Positions 3,898 to 61,081 of a DNA stretch of 64,000 bases are shown piece after piece. Each line of letters opens with the position of its first letter. Position 1 is the stretch's first letter. The stretch lies in contig JBAZOT010000003.1 in the NCBI GenBank assembly GCA_041648575.1, positions 14,895-78,894 on the forward strand. Direction: 5' to 3'. Source of the DNA: Patescibacteria group bacterium (GTDB taxonomy: Bacteria > Patescibacteriota > Patescibacteriia > Veblenbacterales > UBA10138). The notes beneath the pieces were generated by a model. It was not told the origin of the DNA. It did no database searches and saw nothing but the letters and a program-made list of their open reading frames with translations. The position numbers and the translations under genes were made by a program.

Positions 3898-4464
3898 CTA
3901 GGTTTTAAAATTCTCATAAATTTTACTAGCCTGTGGAACATCGGCACCATAATACTTGGAACGAAGCTCCTTGCTTCCATAAGGCCGTTCGCAAGGAGAA
4001 GACAGTGGCATAAAAGCAATCTGCGCTATAGCCATTTTGTAATATAGCTTTACTGGCAAGTTACCAATATTATGTAGTTCTAAAGTCGGCTTTAATGAAT
4101 TTCCTGGATCAATAAAACCGGCCGTAGCATGAATGATAATTCCAATCCTGCCCAAAGAAGATTTTCCTTCTAAACGCCCTACCATATCATTAGACAAAGT
4201 TATTCTTTCTATAGTAACACCAAGAGCAAATTCGCCTGGGTGTAGAACAAACGGTTGATCTTCTTTAATTTCTACTTTATCCATTAAATCTGGTGTCTTC
4301 TCTCTAACATCAATGCAAACATGACCGGTGTTTTTAAATATCAAAAATTGATTATCCAAATGCAAATCAACAGATGCCGGTTGAATAGATTCATCAAACA
4401 ATGGCTCAATTTTTATTCTACCTTCAGCTAATATTTTTTTAATATCTTTGTCTGATAAAATCAT
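3898..4464 (-). CDS. dcd: dCTP deaminase
   Basis: MILSDKDIKKILAEGRIKIEP...ASVDLHLDNQF...GRLEGKSSLGRIGIIIHATAGFIDPG: canonical Dcd motifs. Confidence 0.9.
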   Translation of the reverse strand: MILSDKDIKKILAEGRIKIEPLFDESIQPASVDLHLDNQFLIFKNTGHVCIDVREKTPDLMDKVEIKEDQPFVLHPGEFALGVTIERITLSNDMVGRLEGKSSLGRIGIIIHATAGFIDPGNSLKPTLELHNIGNLPVKLYYKMAIAQIAFMPLSSPCERPYGSKELRSKYYGADVPQASKIYENFKT

Positions 4465-4537
4465 ATAATTGGATAAATAATTTTCAATCTACGGCTCATA
4501 ATTTTTTACACTAACCACTGTATTAGTGATCTTTAAA

Positions 4538-5221
4538 CTAAATTACCAAGGGAATGGCTGGCCCCATAGAACAAGTCAATACAGCATTTTTAAGATAAGT
4601 ACCCTTAACGCCTGTAGGTTTAGCCTTGCGTATCGCCTGCAACAGATTTTCAGCGTTTTCCTGTAATTTTATTGCGTCAAATGACATTTTACCAATCATC
4701 TGATGCACATTACCAGATTCATCCACTTTAAAACTAATTTTACCAGAATTAAGTGCTTGCACAACTTTTCCCACATCTGGAGTAATAGTCTCGGTTTTAG
4801 GATTAGGCATTAAACCTTTTTGCCCCAGAATTTTAGCAATCGGTGCCATTTTCTTCATCATACCTGGTGTAGCAACCGCAACATCAAAATCACATTTCCC
4901 AGTGGTGGCTATTATTTTTATTAACTCGTCTCCACCCACAATCGTCGCTCCAGCTGCCTTAGCTTCTTTTTCATTAGCTTCTTCACAAAAAACCGCCACT
5001 TTTTTTAACTTACCTAAACCGTGTGGCAAAGTTGTGAAACCACGCACTTGTTGATTAGCTTGTTTAGTGTCAACTCCCAGTTTGAAATGAATTTCCACCG
5101 ATTGATCAAACTTAGTGGCTGGCATTTGTTTTAAAAGCTCTACTGCTTCTTTAATATTATAACGCTTGCCCGGCTCAATTTTAGAACGGGCAGCTGTATA
5201 TCGTTTACCTGATTTTGACAT
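4538..5221 (-). CDS. rplA: 50S ribosomal protein L1
   Basis: MSKSGKRYTAARSKIEPGKRYNIKEAVELLK...FDQSVEIHFKLGVDTKQANQQVRG: L1 signature. Confidence 0.95.
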   Translation of the reverse strand: MSKSGKRYTAARSKIEPGKRYNIKEAVELLKQMPATKFDQSVEIHFKLGVDTKQANQQVRGFTTLPHGLGKLKKVAVFCEEANEKEAKAAGATIVGGDELIKIIATTGKCDFDVAVATPGMMKKMAPIAKILGQKGLMPNPKTETITPDVGKVVQALNSGKISFKVDESGNVHQMIGKMSFDAIKLQENAENLLQAIRKAKPTGVKGTYLKNAVLTCSMGPAIPLVI

Positions 5222-5323
5222 AAATTTTTCCTTTCTTTACTCTCTCGTCCTGCCTATTGGCAGATACAAGATTAGTGGTTCAAACTCCCGATATTAATCA
5301 GGATCCCACCCATATTAATTAAA

Positions 5324-5752
5324 TTATCCTTCTACTGTTAAACCCATTTGCCTGGCAGTACCTTCAATAATTTTCATTGCGGCATTGATATCGTTGGCAT
5401 TTAAATCCGACATCTTTATCTTAGCAATTTCTTCAATTTGTTTCTTAGTAACTTTACCTACTTTCTCTTGCAAAGGCTTACCCGAACCCTTGGTAATACC
5501 AGCGGCTTTTTTAAGCAGCTCGGCTGCCGGCGGAGTTTTTAAAATAAAAGTATAACTGCGATCCTCAAAGACAGTTATTTCACAAGGAATAATATCATTA
5601 CCCTTGTCTTTGGTGGCGGCATTAAATTTAGTGCAGAATTCCTGCAAATTTAATCCATGTTGCCCCAAAGCTGGCCCCACCGGCGGCGCTGGAGTGGCTT
5701 TACCTGCTGATATTTGAAGTTTGATAACTGTTTTTACTTTTTTACCTGCCAT
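5324..5752 (-). CDS. rplK: 50S ribosomal protein L11
   Basis: [35 protein letters not shown]...: L11 signature. Confidence 0.95.
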
Positions 5753-5786: not shown

Positions 5787-6332
5787 TTAGATCTTTTGAA
5801 TTTGTAAAAAATCCAACTCTACTGGCGTTTCCCGTCCAAACATTGAAACCAATACTTTTACTTTACCCCGACCTTCGTCTACCTCGGATACCTTACCGTC
5901 AAAATCCTTAAAAGGCCCATCACTAATTTTTACTGCCATACCAACAGTCACATCCATTTTATAAGTTGGCTCTTCAATGCCCATTCTTTTTTGCAACGCC
6001 TTCATTTCTTCTTCTGAAACTGGAGTTGGAGTGGTGCCGCTACCAATAAATCCAGTAACATTTGGGGTATTACGCACCACATACCATGAATCATCAGTCA
6101 CCATCATTTCCACTAATACGTATCCTGGAAAAATTTTCTCTTCAACCACTTTACGCTTGCCATTTTTAATGCGAATCTTTTTTTCAGTGGGAATTAAAAT
6201 ATTAAAAATCTTATCACCCATATCCATTGATTCAATACGCTGCTTTAAATTGCGGGTAACATTTTCCTCATAACCAGAATAGGTATGTAGGGCATACCAA
6301 CGTCTACCTTGTTGTATTATCTGTCGCGGCAT
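5787..6332 (-). CDS. nusG: transcription termination/antitermination factor NusG
   Basis: WYALHTYSGYEENV (NGN domain) and KOW motif GMAVKISDGPFKDFDGKV. The ATG at 6330-6332 (MPRQ...) is the likely start. The ORF track adds four residues from a TTG inside the upstream repeat element. Confidence 0.9.
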   Translation of the reverse strand: MPRQIIQQGRRWYALHTYSGYEENVTRNLKQRIESMDMGDKIFNILIPTEKKIRIKNGKRKVVEEKIFPGYVLVEMMVTDDSWYVVRNTPNVTGFIGSGTTPTPVSEEEMKALQKRMGIEEPTYKMDVTVGMAVKISDGPFKDFDGKVSEVDEGRGKVKVLVSMFGRETPVELDFLQIQKI

Positions 6333-6484
6333 ATCCAGTAACAATAACTTGACCTGCTAAAAATTAAGCGAGTCAAAAGTTTATTTAATAGTTAGATCGG
6401 TCTTGTTTAAAAAAGATAACATAGATTAATAGTATAGATAATTTCTATCAGCACGAGCTTAAGTCAAGTTTTGTTACTGGACAT
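6333..6484. repeat. Copy 1 of a ~140-bp TIR-bounded intergenic cassette (copy 2 at 51633-51777)
   Basis: Left end CCAGTAACAATAACTTGACCTGCTAAAAATTAAGCGAGTC, right end GAGCTTAAGTCAAGTTTTGTTACTGGACAT. The termini are inverted repeats of each other (CCAGTAACAAAACTTGAC). About 41 nt on the left and 30 nt on the right are near-identical to copy 2, and the middle is about 70% similar. Confidence 0.8.
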
Positions 6485-7247: not shown

Positions 7248-7982
7248 TTAGTTTTTAACATTCTTTTGCTTGATTACAATAATTTGTCCAGTAATATGAT
7301 CTGCCTCTTTTGAAGCTAAAAACAAAGTCAAGCTTGCGACATCTTCGGATTGAAGTGCGTTATCTGGTGTAGCATCATCTGGGAAAAATTTTTTGTACGC
7401 TTCAGTTGCTACATCAGAAGGCGAAATGCAATTAACTTGAATTTGATGATTTCTAAGTTCGTGAGAAAGTCCAACCGTTAAATCTTCAATCGCTTTTTTG
7501 GACACGAAATAAGGAAGCCAACCTTTTGCGCCACTCTCGAAAGTTCCTGAAATGTTGATGATTTTACTACCTTGTTTCATTAAGGAAACGAGTTCGTGTG
7601 ATAAAATGGTTGGCGCAGTTAAACCCACTGCGTAAGTATCCAAAATTTCATCGGTTGAATAATCAGCAAATTCAATCCCTGAAAACGCTTTGTCTTTAGA
7701 GTGCCAAATACCAGCAACATTGACGAGAATATCTATTTCGCCTTCTGACTCCTTGATATTTTGAGCAAACTTTTTTATCTCATCAACACTTCTTAAGTCA
7801 ACACAAAAAATTTTTCCTTCGCTACCTGCTTCTTTAACAAGCTCAAGTGTTTTTTCTAAACCATCTTTGGAGCGAGCCAAAAGCATAGTTTTCGCACCTT
7901 CCGAAGCGAGCTTGACGGATATAGCACGACCAATGCCAATACTTGCACCTGTGATGACGGCAATTTTGTTTTTTAGCTTCAT
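7248..7982 (-). CDS. short-chain dehydrogenase/reductase (SDR) family oxidoreductase
   Basis: N-terminal IAVITGASIGIGRAI Rossmann motif. Catalytic Y-x3-K region (LPYFVSKKAIEDL). Confidence 0.85.
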   Translation of the reverse strand: MKLKNKIAVITGASIGIGRAISVKLASEGAKTMLLARSKDGLEKTLELVKEAGSEGKIFCVDLRSVDEIKKFAQNIKESEGEIDILVNVAGIWHSKDKAFSGIEFADYSTDEILDTYAVGLTAPTILSHELVSLMKQGSKIINISGTFESGAKGWLPYFVSKKAIEDLTVGLSHELRNHQIQVNCISPSDVATEAYKKFFPDDATPDNALQSEDVASLTLFLASKEADHITGQIIVIKQKNVKN

Positions 7983-8149: not shown

Positions 8150-8310
8150 CCCACCTCCGCCCTGGCTGCAGGTAAATTTTCCAACCATTTTCTTATTCGC
8201 ACGAATAAGAAAGTAGTAATCCAGGGATAACCACTTAAATACCCAACTTCTTTACCCGCCTCCGCTAAAGCTTCTGGCTTCGCTCTAGCTTAGGCGGACA
8301 ACTCGGTGGG
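8150..8310. other. GC-rich structured non-coding element with competing helices (CCCACCTCCGCC...GGCGGAcaactcGGTGGG; CCGCCT...AGGCGG; CCCTGG...CCAGGG; hairpin TTCTTATTCGcaCGAATAAGAA)
   Basis: GC content far above local background. Long-range complementarity read from the sequence. Lies between the gyrB stop and the SDR start. Confidence 0.4.
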
Positions 8311-12881: not shown

Positions 12882-12978
12882 GTAATTTCAAAATGTAAAA
12901 ATCAAAATGCAAAATGACAGATTAAACTTTAAAATTAATAAATAATTTTGATTTTTGATTTTTTAATTTTAAATTAAC

Positions 12979-29602: not shown

Positions 29603-30649
29603 TTATTCATCCTCGTTCTTCGGCTTATCTAAAACTAATGGTTCAATCTCGGCCGCCGTTCCAGAAATTCTTAGCACATCCTTATCTATCTTCCCCAATT
29701 CTTTATAAGCAATATTGTAAGTACTAACAGTTGTTCCTAAATGCCCACCCAACTTTTTCATATACTCTTCGTAACTGGCAATATGTCTCCCTAACGCTTC
29801 TACGTTTTTTCTAATCTCTTTAGCCGATTCTTCTATTTGTAAAGCTTTCAAACCCTGCAGCACAGTTTGTAAATATGCCAAAAAAGAAGTTGGCGAAACT
29901 ATAATCACATGTTTTTCTTTAAACGCATACTCAATTAAATCACGGGTATTAACTTTTACCGCGCCAACCTGTGTCACTAACAAATCATAATAAATTGCCT
30001 CATGCGGAATAAACATAAAAGCAAACTCCATGGTTTTTTCAGCTGGTTTTACGTATTTTGAAGTTTCATCAATTCGCGCCTTTAAATCAGCTTTAAAGGT
30101 TTTTTCTAACCGCTCGCGTTCTACTGGATCTCTTTCTTCAGCTAAACGATTATAATTTTCCAGAGAAAACTTAGAATCAATGGGAATAATTTTGTCTTTT
30201 ACAAAAACTACTGCGTCTACAATCGTACCGTCTTTAAATTCATATTGCATCTGGTAACTGCCAGTTGGTAAAACATTTTTTAATAAAGTCTCTAAATAAT
30301 ATTCACCCAATATTCCCCGCTGCTTTGGATTTTTCAAAATATCTTGTAAACTTTGCAGCTGATCAGCAAAATTAACCACCTGCTTGTTGGTTTCATCCAG
30401 CTTAGTCAGACGCTCGGTTACATCCCGTATTATTTTAGCTGACTCCCCAAACTGCTGTTGCATAGCCTTGGTTGATTCGCCCAATTTATTATCCAAAGTT
30501 CTGGTAATCTCATTTAGCTGGTTTTGGAGCATTAATAAACTATTTGCATCGGGTGCTGAACCAGTAGAAATGCGCGATTTCAATAATAAAAACAAGACGA
30601 CAAACCCTACTAGCACGACAATTAAAAGTATAATAAATTCTATACTCAT
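29603..30649 (-). CDS. rmuC: DNA recombination protein RmuC family
   Basis: N-terminal TM, coiled coil, C-terminal ...EFAFMFIPHEAIYYDLL... RmuC nuclease-like core. Confidence 0.75.
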   Translation of the reverse strand: MSIEFIILLIVVLVGFVVLFLLLKSRISTGSAPDANSLLMLQNQLNEITRTLDNKLGESTKAMQQQFGESAKIIRDVTERLTKLDETNKQVVNFADQLQSLQDILKNPKQRGILGEYYLETLLKNVLPTGSYQMQYEFKDGTIVDAVVFVKDKIIPIDSKFSLENYNRLAEERDPVERERLEKTFKADLKARIDETSKYVKPAEKTMEFAFMFIPHEAIYYDLLVTQVGAVKVNTRDLIEYAFKEKHVIIVSPTSFLAYLQTVLQGLKALQIEESAKEIRKNVEALGRHIASYEEYMKKLGGHLGTTVSTYNIAYKELGKIDKDVLRISGTAAEIEPLVLDKPKNEDE

Positions 30650-30777
30650 AGAATTATTATAACAGAACTTCGTTCTTTTGCCAGGATCTTATTTACTATA
30701 AAAATTGTGTTATACTTAAAGTAAATCTAACAAAAAGTGCCATTTTACAAATCAATACCCCTGAAAGGAGTAACGCC

Positions 30778-31488
30778 ATGACTAAAGCTCTGACTTTTAA
30801 TCGTACTACTTTTCCCCTTCTTTACCGTCGCTATTTAAGTATTGCTTTAACTATAGCAATCTTTGTACATCTTGCGGTAATTGCTGTTTATTATATTGTC
30901 TCGTCATTTACCGTTGAAGAGTCAATAGTAATGGTCAGACTAACAAAATATATCGACCTACCACCTCCACCATCAATAGATCAGGCTAATAATCCACCAA
31001 TAGTTAACTTTAATATACAAGCAACAATTGGAAAAGGGATACCCGTCCCTGTGCTTGACGCAGAAGTCAATCCCGATCAAACCATTGCTTCACAAACAGA
31101 ACTATCACAGCAAGCTAACGCCACCAGTAATATTTTAAATACTCAATCAAATGTAGAATTTATTCTTGACCAAAAAATTAATATTGAAGACGAGGAACCT
31201 CCTGATTTTGTGCCAGTAGAGAAACAACCTGTGCCTGTTAAGACTCAACAACCAGCATATCCTGAAATTGCCAGACGAGCTGGTGTGGAAGGAACTGTTT
31301 GGGTAAAAATTCTTATAGATAAAGAAGGTAAAGCTAAGAAAGCGGTAATTATTAAAAGCGATGCAGAGATATTTAATGAAGCGGCAATTCAGGCTGCACT
31401 GCAATGGGTGTTTACGCCCGCTATGATGAATAATGGTCCAGTTCAAGTATGGGCCGCTGTTCCTTTTCGTTTTAAATTAAATAAATAA
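30778..31488 (+). CDS. TonB C-terminal-domain protein (energy transducer TonB-like), N-terminal TM anchor
   Basis: Proline-rich linker. C-terminal ...PAYPEIARRAGVEGTVWVKILIDKEGKAKKAVIIKSDAEIFNEAAIQAALQWVFTPAMMNNGPV. Confidence 0.8.
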   Translation: MTKALTFNRTTFPLLYRRYLSIALTIAIFVHLAVIAVYYIVSSFTVEESIVMVRLTKYIDLPPPPSIDQANNPPIVNFNIQATIGKGIPVPVLDAEVNPDQTIASQTELSQQANATSNILNTQSNVEFILDQKINIEDEEPPDFVPVEKQPVPVKTQQPAYPEIARRAGVEGTVWVKILIDKEGKAKKAVIIKSDAEIFNEAAIQAALQWVFTPAMMNNGPVQVWAAVPFRFKLNK

Positions 31489-31526: not shown

Positions 31527-31560
31527 AATCCCGTGTATTCCATCACGGGATTTTAATTTA
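31527..31560 (+). terminator. rho-independent terminator of the TonB-like gene
   Basis: AATCCCGTG-tattccat-CACGGGATT followed by TTTAATTT. Confidence 0.8.
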
Positions 31561-31591: not shown

Positions 31592-31629
31592 TAGTCATTT
31601 TTATGTCTGGCCAGACATAAAAATGACTA
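31592..31629. repeat. Perfect 38-bp palindrome (a): TAGTCATTTTTATGTCTGG|CCAGACATAAAAATGACTA
   Basis: Perfect dyad, read directly. Shares the outer arms CAACTAGTCATTT...AAATGACTA with palindrome (b) at 32712-32749. Confidence 0.85.
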
Positions 31630-31776
31630 TCCCAATTTAAAGGGGAAATGGAGAAAATTTTTGGAATAAAATACATTCGAACCGCCACGCGATTTTAAAT
31701 ACCAAAAAAGGGCCACAAAACCAACTAAAACTATTATGATTAAAAATATAAATTCCGTATTCATAACACCATTCTA

Positions 31777-31815
31777 GCAAAAAAGAAAGGGTCTGGAAAT
31801 ACAATCCCAGACCCC
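31777..31815 (-). terminator. rho-independent terminator of the Cys-rich secreted-protein gene
   Basis: Minus strand: GGGTCTGG-gattgtattt-CCAGACCC followed by TTTCTTTTTTG. Confidence 0.75.
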
Positions 31816-31843
31816 ATGAAACTACTATCTAATGGCCTTAGTG

Positions 31844-32566
31844 CTAAAACGATTGAAATGATCGGACAATCTTATCCACCCAGCTAGCCCTACGCATTAA
31901 CTCGTTAGCTATCTGCGGTGCTTGACCCTCCATTACCTTCGCCTCCTCAATCAGTATATTCCTCATCTCAACATTGGTGAGACCAGAAACATCATACCAA
32001 GCCAACGCGGTATCCAGATAAGAAATATTACCTGGTTCCATGTATCGTTCTCCAGTAACAACACTACGCATACCGTCGCTATAGAAACTGAGATACAAAT
32101 TACCAACCATCACCGCCGAGCGCGAAGCTGATACCGTATCACCGCACTTGATGTATAAGTGATAAGCATACTCTGGAAAACTCTTTCTCCCATAACCATC
32201 ATCACAATGTGGTATCCCATAGTATGTTAAGTCTGCTAGGAGTAAGCCCCACCCCTGACGTCTCTTGAACCAGTATGGATCATCACAGGAACTATCACAT
32301 ATCTGATAAATCCTTCTCACTGTGTTTACAAACTCCCAACCACAATAAAATGGGTCATCGGTCCCTGAATAACCCCCTACATCAGTCCATGAATAATTAT
32401 CTGGGTTATATCTCATACCCTCCACAATCTTATACTCGACCAGATTCTTGACCAAAGTGCGATAAGACTGTTCAGGGGACTCTTGCTTTTCCTTGGCAGG
32501 TAAAGTGTTATTTATGACTAAACCAGCCACAGCCAAAAAGATAATGATTGTAAAGTACTTTTTCAT
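31844..32566 (-). CDS. secreted Cys-rich hypothetical protein (signal peptide, 7 Cys)
   Basis: MKKYFTIIIFLAVAGLVINNTLPA signal. Cys in FYCGW, CDSSCDD, PHCDDG, IKCGD. Monocistronic, with its own promoter and terminator. Confidence 0.6.
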   Translation of the reverse strand: MKKYFTIIIFLAVAGLVINNTLPAKEKQESPEQSYRTLVKNLVEYKIVEGMRYNPDNYSWTDVGGYSGTDDPFYCGWEFVNTVRRIYQICDSSCDDPYWFKRRQGWGLLLADLTYYGIPHCDDGYGRKSFPEYAYHLYIKCGDTVSASRSAVMVGNLYLSFYSDGMRSVVTGERYMEPGNISYLDTALAWYDVSGLTNVEMRNILIEEAKVMEGQAPQIANELMRRASWVDKIVRSFQSF

Positions 32567-32651
32567 ATAACACCTGTTTATTTTTGTTTAATAAATTCCC
32601 CATTATTTGGGACTTTTTTAAAGATCTTTACTGTTTTTACAATAACAATAC

Positions 32652-32680
32652 ATAATACGGCAAACTACTTTATTTGTCAA
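32652..32680 (-). promoter_or_regulatory. sigma70-like promoter TTGACA-17-TATTAT for the Cys-rich protein gene
   Basis: Minus-strand hexamers read directly, about 85 nt upstream of the start. Palindrome (b) lies about 35 nt further upstream. Confidence 0.55.
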
Positions 32681-32711
32681 TATCCATACTAAACTAGATT
32701 AAATCACCAAC

Positions 32712-32749
32712 TAGTCATTTACCCTTTCGCGCGAAAGGGTAAATGACTA
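32712..32749. repeat. Perfect 38-bp palindrome (b): TAGTCATTTACCCTTTCGC|GCGAAAGGGTAAATGACTA
   Basis: Perfect dyad. Inner core ACCCTTTCGCGCGAAAGGGT. Half-copy at 33082-33100 in front of the ArsR gene. Confidence 0.85.
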
Positions 32750-32777
32750 AAGAAATAATTTATGCATAAACAGTTAA

Positions 32778-33056
32778 TTAGCTAGTCTGACGGACTTGCT
32801 TAAGAAGCTGCTGCAACAAACTACTTAACCCCTCATCTAAACTATATAGACCTACGTATCCAAATTGCCTGCGTTCTAAAAACCCCACTTGCCGCAATAG
32901 CACTAAGTGTTTAGAGGTGGACTTAAATGATAGATGAATCGCCGTCGCAACGTCACCTACTGTCCGCTCTTTACCATCGGACAACAACCTTAGTATCTCC
33001 AGCCGCTTTCTCGCACCCAGCGCCCGGTAAACCTTTTCTAACTCTCGTAGACGCAT
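32778..33056 (-). CDS. ArsR/SmtB-family winged-helix transcriptional regulator
   Basis: ...YRALGARKRLEILRLLSDGKERTVGDVATAIHLSFKSTSKHLVLLRQVGFLE...: ArsR HTH signature. Confidence 0.8.
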   Translation of the reverse strand: MRLRELEKVYRALGARKRLEILRLLSDGKERTVGDVATAIHLSFKSTSKHLVLLRQVGFLERRQFGYVGLYSLDEGLSSLLQQLLKQVRQTS

Positions 33057-33081
33057 GTTGGTAGTATATCATATTTACTGA

Positions 33082-33100
33082 TTCGCGCGAAAGGGTAAAT
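33082..33100. promoter_or_regulatory. Half-site TTCGCGCGAAAGGGTAAAT of palindrome (b) overlapping the ArsR promoter region (likely autoregulatory operator)
   Basis: 19/19 identical to the right arm of 32712-32749. Lies 25-45 nt upstream of the arsR-like ATG next to a TATACT -10-like hexamer. Confidence 0.55.
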
Positions 33101-33120
33101 AATCATATAAACCAACACAT

Positions 33121-33960
33121 TTACAAACTAAATAAATTTCTCGCATTTTGAGTTGTAACCCTAGCCAGCTCGTCTAAACTTATATTTTTCAATTCAGCTA
33201 TTTTCTTTGCCACCTCCACTATATACGCCGGCTCGTTGCGGGTGCCCCGATAAGCTTGGGGGGCCAGATACGGCGCGTCTGTTTCTACCATTATCCTATC
33301 AATTGGAGTTTCTTTTACTACTTTTAACAATCCCGGACTGGCATTTTTAAAAGTAATAATTCCGGTAAACGATAATAAAAATCCTAAATCTAAAAATTGT
33401 TTAGCTTGCTCTTGGGTACCTAAAAAACAATGAGCCACGCCCTTTTTTGATAATCTACCTTTGTCTAATTCTTGTTTTAAAATCATCAACAAATCATCAT
33501 AAGCTTCACGGCAATGAATAATAACAGGTAAATTAAGTTCGTCGGCTAAAGTAATATGCTGCCTAAACAATTCTTGTTGCTTTGTTTTAACTTCTGTCTT
33601 ATCAACGCCATCTGGAAAACGATAATAATCCAATCCACACTCCCCTATGGCTACCACTTTACTACCAGAACCACGTGCTAAAGCAGAATATCTTGATGGA
33701 TTAAAAACCTCGGCCCGAGTTTTAAAATAAATTTCTTCCTCATCCACTTCTTGCTCAAATAAATGAATGGGATGAAGCCCAATCGCGGCATATAAATTAT
33801 CATGTTCCTGTGCTAATTTTACTGCCCGCTCCGATGTGTCCCATTGACTGCCAAGATTAATAATACAAGTCACACCAGCACGATGAGCTCGTTTAATTAC
33901 CTCATCAGTATCATTCTTAAACGCATTAAAATTCAAATGGCAGTGAGTATCAATCAACAT
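33121..33960 (-). CDS. tatD: TatD-family metal-dependent deoxyribonuclease
   Basis: MLIDTHCHLNF start. TatD motifs. Confidence 0.9.
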   Translation of the reverse strand: MLIDTHCHLNFNAFKNDTDEVIKRAHRAGVTCIINLGSQWDTSERAVKLAQEHDNLYAAIGLHPIHLFEQEVDEEEIYFKTRAEVFNPSRYSALARGSGSKVVAIGECGLDYYRFPDGVDKTEVKTKQQELFRQHITLADELNLPVIIHCREAYDDLLMILKQELDKGRLSKKGVAHCFLGTQEQAKQFLDLGFLLSFTGIITFKNASPGLLKVVKETPIDRIMVETDAPYLAPQAYRGTRNEPAYIVEVAKKIAELKNISLDELARVTTQNARNLFSL

Positions 33961-60593: not shown

Positions 60594-60708
60594 CATGAAG
60601 TATATGCTAGCAAATTAATACGCCATGAAGTTGTATAAAGAAGTAAATACTTCTTGGCTCGCCATGAAGTTATGCGAATAAAATGAGCATATACTTCATG
60701 GTGGAGAT
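60594..60708. promoter_or_regulatory. Cluster of CATGAAGT iterons (3 direct, 1 inverted) between the tmRNA 3' end and the GIY-YIG/infC operon
   Basis: GCATGAAGTA at 60595, CGCCATGAAGTT at 60633 and 60661, ACTTCATGGTGG at 60693-60704, overlapping the tmRNA CCA end. Confidence 0.4.
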
Positions 60709-61081
60709 GGCGGGAATTACACCCGCGTCTAAGACAATTAACTTTACCCTTCTACAAACTTAGTCTGATTAATTTTGACAGAAGTCAAATCAGACCAAAG
60801 CCCCTGTCAATCTGTCCTAAGTAATGTCGGCCTAAGCACTAGAACAATACTTAAACCCTGCTCGATAAATGACGCTCTATAAGACTATCGAGATCGTCTA
60901 ATAGAACGGCCTCTGCTTAAATTAAGCAAAAGCTGGTGCTAGTGTCAAAGTGCTAAAAGCAGCTTTGGCGCGAGCTACAAATGATTTGGCATTTGTGAAG
61001 TGTGATGCTTTTATTACGCAGACACATCAACTGCGGTCTGCCAGACAAAGATCACTGCCTTATCGATTGTTAAACATCCCC
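60700..61081 (-). ncRNA. ssrA: tmRNA (SsrA), about 382 nt
   Basis: Minus strand 5'-GGGGAUGUUUAAC... and 3'-...GACGCGGGUGUAAUUCCCGCCAUCUCCACCA. 7-bp acceptor stem with G3.U wobble (AlaRS identity). T-arm GCGGG/UGUAAUU/CCCGC. Encoded CCA. Plausible tag ORF GCC AAA UCA ... GCU UUU GCU UAA (AKSFVARAKAAFSTLTLAPAFA*). Adjacent to smpB. Confidence 0.85.

Follow-up and report, generated by a model that had tools for sequence, protein, structure and literature searches.

Organization of the locus

We analyzed a stretch of 64,000 nt (the window), part of a 101-kb contig from a Patescibacteria metagenome-assembled genome (MAG), which harbors two long palindromes, (a) and (b), a related imperfect site, (c), and a 92-aa ArsR-type gene (arsR) located between (c) and (b). 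Nearly all genes of the window are on the minus strand. Read along that strand, the genes around the sites encode MetRS, CvpA, and TatD, followed by arsR and a 240-aa protein without a family, referred to here as the near-ORFan. Next come a decayed second copy of the RmuC promoter and initial ~45 codons, the oppositely oriented TonB_C gene, the intact RmuC gene, and the ATP synthase operon (Table 1).

An earlier note on this DNA, made from its letters, had described (a) and (b) as two perfect 38-bp dyads, and both their coordinates and their identity to their own reverse complements hold. The two share a flanking CAAC with the arms TAGTCATTT (left) and AAATGACTA (right), which surround unlike 20-bp cores. 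Because only 7e-7 zero-spacer palindromes with arms of at least 19 bp are expected in the 64-kb window, and the longest arms in 20 shuffles reached 7–11 bp compared to the 19 bp observed, both palindromes lie beyond chance. They are the sole such palindromes within the window. The exact 9-mer arm was found at those four positions only, and matches with one mismatch were at chance level (35 versus 29.6 expected). In an independent Logan assembly (SRR8449827; L002, L004, and L130/L132), contigs break off exactly 30 nt into (a) and (b), because a graph with k = 31 must stop at a perfect palindrome. These dyads systematically fragment short-read assemblies, which explains the assembly breaks at these loci. 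Some contigs with ArsR homologs from other sources likewise end at a site (L005 and L008).

The TAGTC/GACTA ends of (b) are lineage-specific extensions of the dyad, related versions of which (TTAGCCA and TTTAGTCA) were identified in L110, L007, and L075, and the 28-mer of (b) is also present 3′ of the arsR stop codon in L005–L012. The 13 nt common to (a) and (b), CAACTAGTCATTT, are specific to this genome and too long to be shared by chance, pointing to a local event of copying or recombination and not to a common operator.

Site (c) spans the −35/spacer region of arsR. The earlier note had seen a half-copy of the (b) core at 33082–33100; its placement at the −35 region was correct, but the copy is a full, imperfect one of 28 bp. 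The gene-proximal half of (c), CGAATCAGTAAAT, is also present in L005, L006, L010, and L114, and L007 has the symmetric CGAAAGGGTAAAT in its place. The same arrangement of −10 box, site, and ATG was found in these five loci, and the arsR mRNA is predicted to be leaderless. With a diverged orphan copy near gyrB, which had no counterpart in 100 shuffles, the window contains 3 copies of the (b)-type motif.

Table 1. Features of the window, with positions counted from its first nucleotide.
Feature	Position	Strand	Description
Palindrome (b)	32712..32749	none	Perfect 38-bp dyad; inner 28–30 bp (32716–32745) correspond to the conserved Patescibacteria motif CATTTACCCTTTCGCGCGAAAGGGTAAATG
Site (c)	33073..33100	none	Imperfect 28-bp copy, reading ATTTACCCTTTCGCGCGAATCAGTAAAT in the sense of arsR; 25/28 identical to inner 28 bp of (b)
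arsR, ArsR/SmtB-family winged-helix gene, 92 aa	32778..33056	-	Pfam HTH_5 PF01022, E 7e-8, above cutoff
Predicted −10 box of arsR, TATACT	33063..33068	-	4 nt past (c), 6 nt before ATG; read from the sequence
Diverged orphan (b)-type copy, ATTTTCTTATTCGCACGAATAAGAAAGT	8187..8214	none	~105 nt past the gyrB stop codon
Palindrome (a)	31592..31629	none	Perfect 38-bp dyad equal to its own reverse complement; second family, TAGTCATTTTTMTGTC-N6-GACAKAAAAATGACTA
Lineage-specific near-ORFan, 240 aa	31844..32566	-	Between arsR and old RmuC start; N-terminal signal or anchor, predicted all-alpha helical repeat
Sigma-70-like promoter of near-ORFan, TTGACA-17-TATTAT	32652..32680	-	11/12 matches
Canonical intrinsic terminator of near-ORFan	31788..31815	-	GC stem and T-run; terminator scan
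Decayed duplicate of RmuC promoter and first ~45 codons	31627..31800	-	~70% DNA identity to 30560–30700; ends against (a)
TatD gene, conserved upstream neighbor of arsR	33121..33960	-	Stop codon 20 nt from site (c)
Intact RmuC gene, ancestral downstream neighbor of arsR	29603..30649	-	Comparison of loci
TonB_C-domain gene	30778..31488	+	Inserted segment between RmuC remnant and intact RmuC
Intrinsic terminator of TonB_C gene	31527..31552	+	Terminator scan

The ArsR-like protein lacks known metal sites

The protein encoded by arsR scored 52 bits against the NCBIfam HTH_metalloreg model NF033788, which is under the cutoff of 55. In a PDB sequence match, the closest solved structure was CzrA (E 6e-7), a representative of a family known for binding 12-2-12 dyads over the promoters of its own genes. 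The ArsR-like protein is devoid of Cys and has 2 His residues, each of them located within or close to the recognition helix. This helix, LSFKSTSKHL, is near-invariant, even in homologs with ~40% overall identity. In the alignment with CzrA, the alpha5 His positions are occupied by Gly/Leu and the alpha5 His/Asp ligands are absent. Metal or redox sensing had been proposed for this protein, together with an alignment to type its metal site; the alignment to CzrA revealed neither an alpha3/alpha3N Cys site nor an alpha5 Asp/His site, and the proposal was not supported. No metal efflux or detoxification gene adjoins arsR, its neighbors being TatD, RmuC, FolD, integrase, MurC, and others.

A conserved palindrome accompanies arsR in Patescibacteria

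About 20 homologs of the ArsR-like protein were detectable, and 17 loci with homologs of 38–87% identity were read. Loci L005–L012 and L122–L128 were fetched through the protein, a sample unbiased as to the site, and L082–L121 through a scan with a DNA pattern. A palindrome with the consensus C-Y-A-TTTACC-NN-TTCG-NN-CGAA-NN-GGTAAA-T-R-G accompanies arsR in all 17 loci, located upstream in 15, downstream in 16, and on both sides in 14, and no other intergenic DNA is conserved across them. Among the loci fetched through the protein, the bases of the site that never vary are TTCG-NN-CGAA, beside the dyad axis. This invariant core parallels the near-invariant recognition helix of the protein, in loci sampled without bias as to the site.

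In all six loci of the near clade, as well as in L119 and L120, the upstream copy ends 4–6 nt ahead of a TAnAnT −10 box, and in the near clade the box precedes the ATG by 6–7 nt. The upstream copy is degenerate or farther from the −10 box in L109, L112, L115, and L102, and none was found in L097 and L121. These comparisons support the earlier suggestion of an ArsR-family repressor that acts on its own gene through a palindromic operator at the promoter.

The downstream copy is located 5–60 nt past the arsR stop codon, and the gene 3′ of it varies (RmuC, integrase, SerRS, SDH protease, DUF11, and others). The arrangement TatD-site-arsR-site-RmuC in L007–L012 is ancestral, and the downstream site is therefore older than the 240-aa gene. 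A regulon link between the regulator and this secreted protein, as suggested before, was not supported, since the palindrome follows arsR in 16/17 loci whatever the next gene and the near-ORFan is present in this lineage only.

Two irregular downstream sites were also observed. In L126 (~7680–7740) and L127 (~5500–5560), a 21-nt insertion splits the downstream arsR site, ATTTACCCTT[gcctgcctgcggtaggcctgg]CGCGCGAAAGG. In L122 (8001–8339), the homolog is annotated with 112 aa and its open reading frame runs through the downstream palindrome (site at 8308), a length that is probably an annotation or frameshift artifact.

Copies of the motif beyond arsR

In order to identify further copies, one genome per species was scanned with TTTACNNNTTCGNGCGAANNNGTAAA, which gave 47 loci. 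Of these, 38 are intergenic and all belong to Patescibacteria of many classes, from Saccharibacteria to Kerfeldbacteria, or to MAGs resembling them. The other nine (Bacteroidota, Roseovarius, and others) are located within genes with 3–4 dyad mismatches and no extension, and were rejected as chance matches. About 4 pattern matches were found per MAG, including an 876-kb contig. The earlier note had considered that the palindromes might be abundant genome-wide in the manner of repetitive extragenic palindromic (REP) elements; they occur in only ~4 copies per genome. Orphan copies mostly lie 4–85 nt 3′ of the stop codons of unrelated housekeeping genes, among them those for L27, L20, MreB, UvrA (two genomes), KhpA, and lumazine synthase, and gyrB in the window. 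No functional theme was found among the neighbors of orphan sites, which also include glycosyltransferases and hydrolases.

The dyad symmetry of the copies is maintained beyond the invariant bases. Changes at the two variable positions of each half-site are symmetric (CT/AG, TA/TA, AA/TT, GA/TC, and CA/TG), and variable flanks lengthen the dyad to as much as 44 bp, with paired columns reaching past the 28-bp core. In an analysis of dyad covariation, 165 cells were changed on both sides compared to 99 ± 8 in shuffles, and 0/500 shuffles reached the observed value. Template switching has been reported to homogenize and expand the arms of inverted repeats (PMC13100816, PMC8604942, PMC7202029), and the symmetric arms and outward extension of the present sites were likely caused by replication template switching at quasipalindromes.

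Searches of viral collections gave 35 matches to the arm pattern, none of which had a palindromic core or the CAAC flank, and 0 matches to the core pattern, and hence no phage link. In MAG KM4336-41, a (b)-type site is located within a dispersed repeat of at least 110 bp (L100 ~6300–6450, L111 ~5200–5350, and L117 ~4370–4520), and L100 and L111 have ~400 bp further in common, which suggests that a larger unit was copied in this genome. Unrelated perfect zero-loop palindromes of 30–40 bp were also seen in intergenic DNA of Patescibacteria (L081 802–841, L109 2750–2789, L111 6061–6092, and L106 7626–7655), and it may be that these genomes generally carry long perfect dyads.

Sites as probable rearrangement junctions

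Loci L126 and L127 encode an identical 89-aa ArsR homolog. Their sequences are 99.9% identical over 3 kb rightward from the center of the upstream site, whereas identity to the left of it is 25%. The left half-sites of the two are separate, located after MurC in one case and after a histidine kinase in the other, and these half-sites are ~50% identical upstream of TTCG. Because identity breaks at the center of the site, the sites probably also mark rearrangement breakpoints. Illegitimate or short-homology recombination at hairpins would give similar junctions. The mobile or recombination element envisaged in the earlier note is thus partly retained: copies stand at the borders of variable segments and one strain-level breakpoint falls on a site center.

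Palindrome (a) and the inserted DNA

The near-ORFan has just 3 weak homologs among 1.8 billion representatives and no Pfam or NCBIfam match. It had been called Cys-rich, a description that does not fit its 5 Cys in 240 aa, none of which is conserved in the three remote homologs. The AlphaFold2 model is an all-alpha repeat with a predicted local distance difference test score of 72 and no significant PDB match. A Sel1/TPR-like periodicity, A..G..Y...A..WY..AG, was observed in the sequence. The product is possibly a secreted or anchored helical-repeat protein. Its promoter was confirmed as predicted earlier, and the center of (b) lies ~85 bp upstream of the predicted start site.

The RmuC remnant behind the near-ORFan holds a 45-aa open reading frame (MNTEFIFLIIIVLVGFVALFWYLKSR...FKLG*). 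It aligns poorly past about codon 28, and RmuC homology returns in a short run, AAATTGGG, directly before (a). The TonB_C gene is missing from the corresponding interval of L007, L010, and L110, and look-ups of identical RmuC and TonB proteins retrieved the same arrangement only and no alternative one. Judging from these loci, the near-ORFan is a lineage-specific insertion into the ancestral ArsR-RmuC junction and no conserved regulon partner. Both (a) and (b) are at the edges of recently inserted DNA. E. coli RmuC has been described as limiting inversions at short inverted repeats, and in view of that role the ancestral place of RmuC next to such palindromes, between two of them, is curious.

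A metagenome scan for the arms of (a) with a 20-nt gap gave 27 loci, a set in which the arms are present by construction of the pattern. True relatives of (a) were found in 4/27 loci, which represent three distinct contigs, as L069 is the reverse complement of part of L062. The sites in L060 and L062/L069 read TAGTCATTTTTATGTC-CAGCTG-GACATAAAAATGACTA and are lengthened to 42–46 bp by variable flanks. That in L068 reads TAGTCATTTTTCTGTC-TAACTA-GACAGAAAAATGACTA, with one compensatory arm change. The 6-bp center of all these relatives differs from that of (a). By comparison with these relatives, (a) is assigned to a separate 16-6-16 family with a core unrelated to (b), and a role for it as a second operator of the same protein was not supported. 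L062 carries a second (a)-type copy 1.1 kb away; its two copies bracket a 1.1-kb insert and lie within a direct duplication of ~200 bp covering the 3′ end of a tig-like gene. Both (a) in the window and the L062 pair look like an insertion with duplication of a neighboring gene end and the palindrome at the junction.

No regulator could be matched to (a). A second ArsR-like open reading frame was not found in the window. One candidate was a TrmB-like gene located ahead of an (a)-type site in L062/L069, yet the promoter of this gene contains no matching site and the window contains no TrmB homolog. In Rfam, the only match of the (a)-type loci was a spurious one, below threshold, to a mir-153 hairpin. 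Beside the (a)-type palindromes of L060 (256–420) and L069 (1475–1640), there is a GC-rich, structured-looking noncoding element with no Rfam match. The TrmB-like gene lies between this element and the palindrome in one of the two loci and is missing from the other.

A proposed autorepressor with paired operators

Our preferred explanation, to which we assign a probability of roughly 0.6, is that arsR encodes a non-metal ArsR/SmtB autorepressor with paired operators, (c) and (b), whose sites, dispersed and of unusual length and symmetry, double as rearrangement hot spots, and that the unrelated (a) marks the edge of a later insertion. The two proposed operators are copies of YATTTACC-NN-TTCG-NN-CGAA-NN-GGTAAATR, represented by (c) and by the inner 28–30 bp of (b), with the 12-2-12 or 13-2-13 geometry of ArsR/SmtB operators. 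Binding of the motif sites by the ArsR-like protein, a dimeric, Cys-free member of the family encoded between the two copies, is quite probable. As (c) overlaps the arsR promoter, the bound protein would repress its own gene by blocking RNA polymerase. The downstream copy would be part of the arsR module and not of the promoter of the next gene, and probably acts as a second binding site by looping or as a roadblock or insulator, aided by its strong hairpin potential; this step is the least certain. From long, near-identical dyads two secondary properties would follow, namely that the arms are kept symmetric or extended and that the sites are preferred points of breaking and joining in rearrangements. 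The ancestral TatD-arsR-RmuC interval gained the near-ORFan and the TonB_C gene in this genome, with (b) bounding one side of the near-ORFan insert and (a) placed exactly where the truncated 5′ remnant of RmuC ends.

Several points weigh against this explanation. We infer the pairing of protein and site from co-occurrence and co-conservation only. The scan pattern fixed TTTAC, TTCG, GCGAA, and GTAAA, and the conservation of these blocks in L075–L121 is partly by construction. At junctions without arsR promoter copies, 12 convergent pairs of genes were counted versus 3 divergent ones, an orphan placement mainly at gene 3′ ends that is unusual for operators; among pure orphans the counts are 8 and 3, which is not significant. 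L110 and KM4336-41 hold several sites and no arsR within the 8-kb pieces seen. Repeated de novo origin of a perfect site of 28–40 bp at many loci is unlikely and speaks for dispersal as mobile DNA. In two independent contexts, a gene for a tyrosine recombinase lies directly next to a site. The breakpoint between L126 and L127 could in principle be an assembly chimera at a repeat.

Alternative explanations

The foremost alternative to the autorepressor explanation, although an unlikely one, is that the palindromes are mainly att/dif-like sites for site-specific recombination, with 11-bp arms and a 6-bp center, acted on by a single Xer-like tyrosine recombinase. The sites would then bracket exchangeable modules and would not exist because of arsR, which would instead be the most widespread of the resident modules or a regulator of the system. 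Both palindrome families can be parsed as 11-6-11 with the center as the most variable part, although the same sequence also fits a 12-2-12 operator. The contexts of the module are consistent with this idea: arsR with two sites was found in at least five unrelated contexts (TatD/RmuC, FolD/integrase, MurC/MurB, kinase/MurB, and others), and the ArsR of the window is closer to copies in the FolD/integrase context (81–87%) than to those in its own TatD/RmuC context (75–80%). L110 retains MetRS-CvpA-TatD-site-...-site-...-RmuC with two hypothetical genes in place of arsR, that is, with different cargo between the sites. Site-gene-site-gene-site arrays are present in L007 and L109, the strain-level breakpoint of L126/L127 falls within the center of the site, and the distance between the end of an integrase gene and a site is 35–144 nt in L006/L114/L122 and in L099, an independent case.

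On the other hand, the bases conserved most strongly, TTCG..CGAA, lie right at the dyad axis, as they do in ArsR/SmtB operators, and the promoter geometry of the upstream copy is conserved. A tblastn search with three locus-derived tyrosine recombinases identified no integrase in the 64-kb window. The asymmetric central bases give mixed relative orientations of the flanking sites, and neither an excised circle nor an empty site was observed. Sites after uvrA and TatD are kept at orthologous positions in diverged genomes, suggesting a function in place. Among the closest known systems are the dif modules of Acinetobacter, in which genes are bracketed by 28-bp XerC/XerD pdif sites (PMC6449649, PMC13141974).

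The likeness to those modules includes a 28-bp site that can be read as 11-6-11, single-gene modules, arrays, varied contexts, and a breakpoint at the site center. Xer/dif modules have distinct XerC and XerD arms and inversely oriented flanking sites, whereas the arms here are identical, of one type, and the orientations mixed; the present sites are also chromosomal and belong to another phylum, one copy has a fixed promoter geometry, and a role for a recombinase is putative. A phylum-wide set of chromosomal, att-like palindromes bracketing exchangeable single-gene modules, with the Cys-free ArsR-like protein as resident site-binding regulator and the near-ORFan and TonB_C gene as captured cargo, is conceivable to us, though we doubt it. 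If true, the sites would explain how tiny genomes acquire lineage-specific surface genes.

Compared to recombination sites, a function of the palindromes in RNA, as bidirectional intrinsic terminators or 3′-end mRNA-stabilizing hairpins conserved by common descent, is less easily reconciled with the data and appears improbable. Folding predictions gave highly stable hairpins (−22.4 and −27.4 kcal/mol, z −6 to −9), most copies stand 4–85 nt past a stop codon, often at convergent genes, and perfect Watson-Crick symmetry suits folding on either strand. In addition, (b) is the sole hairpin between the arsR stop codon and the next promoter. The polarity is inverted in both families, however, with the GC core preceded by the T-run and followed by the A-run, and the stems are followed by A-runs or mixed sequence and not by a U-tract. 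The terminator scan skipped the dyads and called 31527–31552 and 31788–31815 instead, so that (a) stands between two genes that already have canonical terminators of their own. Copies at divergent promoters (L005, L006, L114, and L122) cannot be terminators, 28 invariant bases across the phylum are not needed by terminators, and promoter copy (c) forms only a weak hairpin (−7.8 kcal/mol).

Spread as a selfish element by some transposase, similar to REP elements or miniature inverted-repeat transposable elements, with an incidental association to arsR, is very unlikely. The extragenic sites near 3′ ends and the single-copy gene between two copies recall the REP-RAYT-REP arrangement of REPtrons, the site of KM4336-41 lies inside a dispersed repeat, and near-identical long sites at many loci imply copying. 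Against this, REP elements number tens to hundreds per genome, compared to the ~4 copies found here, and the flanked gene encodes a 92-aa winged-helix protein without a catalytic domain, such as that of a Y1/HUH transposase. The dyads are perfect, unlike the imperfect ones of REP elements, neither a conserved GTAG-type head nor a target-site duplication was found, and the association with arsR holds in 17 diverged loci. Finally, a metal or redox regulon, in which the repressor would control its own gene and a secreted Cys-rich effector through common palindromes, draws on the ArsR-family fold match and a palindrome upstream of a strong promoter and is attractive but unsupported, and the features of the regulator given above, an effector with 5 nonconserved Cys that is absent from all relatives, a post-arsR palindrome older than the insertion, and the unrelated core of (a) leave it hardly any probability.

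Comparison to known systems

As an ArsR/SmtB autorepressor, the proposed system would resemble S. aureus CzrA/czrO and Synechococcus SmtB/smtO-P in its small winged-helix dimer fold, for which CzrA is the best solved match. It would also share the dyad of 28–30 bp with the most conserved bases at a 2-bp center and the overlap with its own promoter, which would imply autoregulation. It differs in having no Cys, no alpha3N/alpha5 metal site, and no neighboring gene for metal efflux or detoxification, and in the second copy after the stop codon, the extra copies at housekeeping 3′ ends, and perfect sites of 38–44 bp. Members of the family that do not respond to metals include NolR, HlyU, and SdpR.

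The CIRCE/HrcA system is similar in its long conserved palindrome, its single conserved repressor across deep lineages, and plausible roles in both DNA and RNA. However, CIRCE occurs in promoters and 5′ untranslated regions of chaperone operons, whereas the non-promoter copies described here are at unrelated 3′ ends and rearrangement junctions. Integron attC sites likewise form hairpins at the borders of cassettes and combine conserved with variable parts. They are imperfect with extrahelical bases and conserved in their outer parts, in contrast to the conserved inner parts seen here; the window lacks IntI, attI, and Pc, and integron cassettes are promoterless, whereas the genes here have their own promoters, a strong one in the case of the near-ORFan. 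Integron, REP/RAYT, and intrinsic terminator identities were each rejected for failing a defining feature.

A literature search on the motif, and on the Candidate Phyla Radiation (CPR) with ArsR or palindromes, found nothing relevant, and the conserved pair of regulator and motif appears to be undescribed in the literature searched. To our knowledge, transcription factors are scarce in Patescibacteria (CPR), and a binding site is known for almost none of them. The outcome of this analysis is a testable pair of a conserved ArsR-type protein and a motif of roughly 30 bp, with a promoter architecture defined enough for work in cultivated Saccharibacteria. The sites also stand at the edges of variable gene content and at one strain-level rearrangement, and may be handles for gene gain in reduced genomes.

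Other features of the window

A transfer-messenger RNA gene at 60699–61081 on the minus strand was the sole Rfam match in the window, and ARAGORN made no call there. An AT-rich imperfect inverted repeat with 44-nt arms of 75% complementarity was observed between two genes at 12882–12978.

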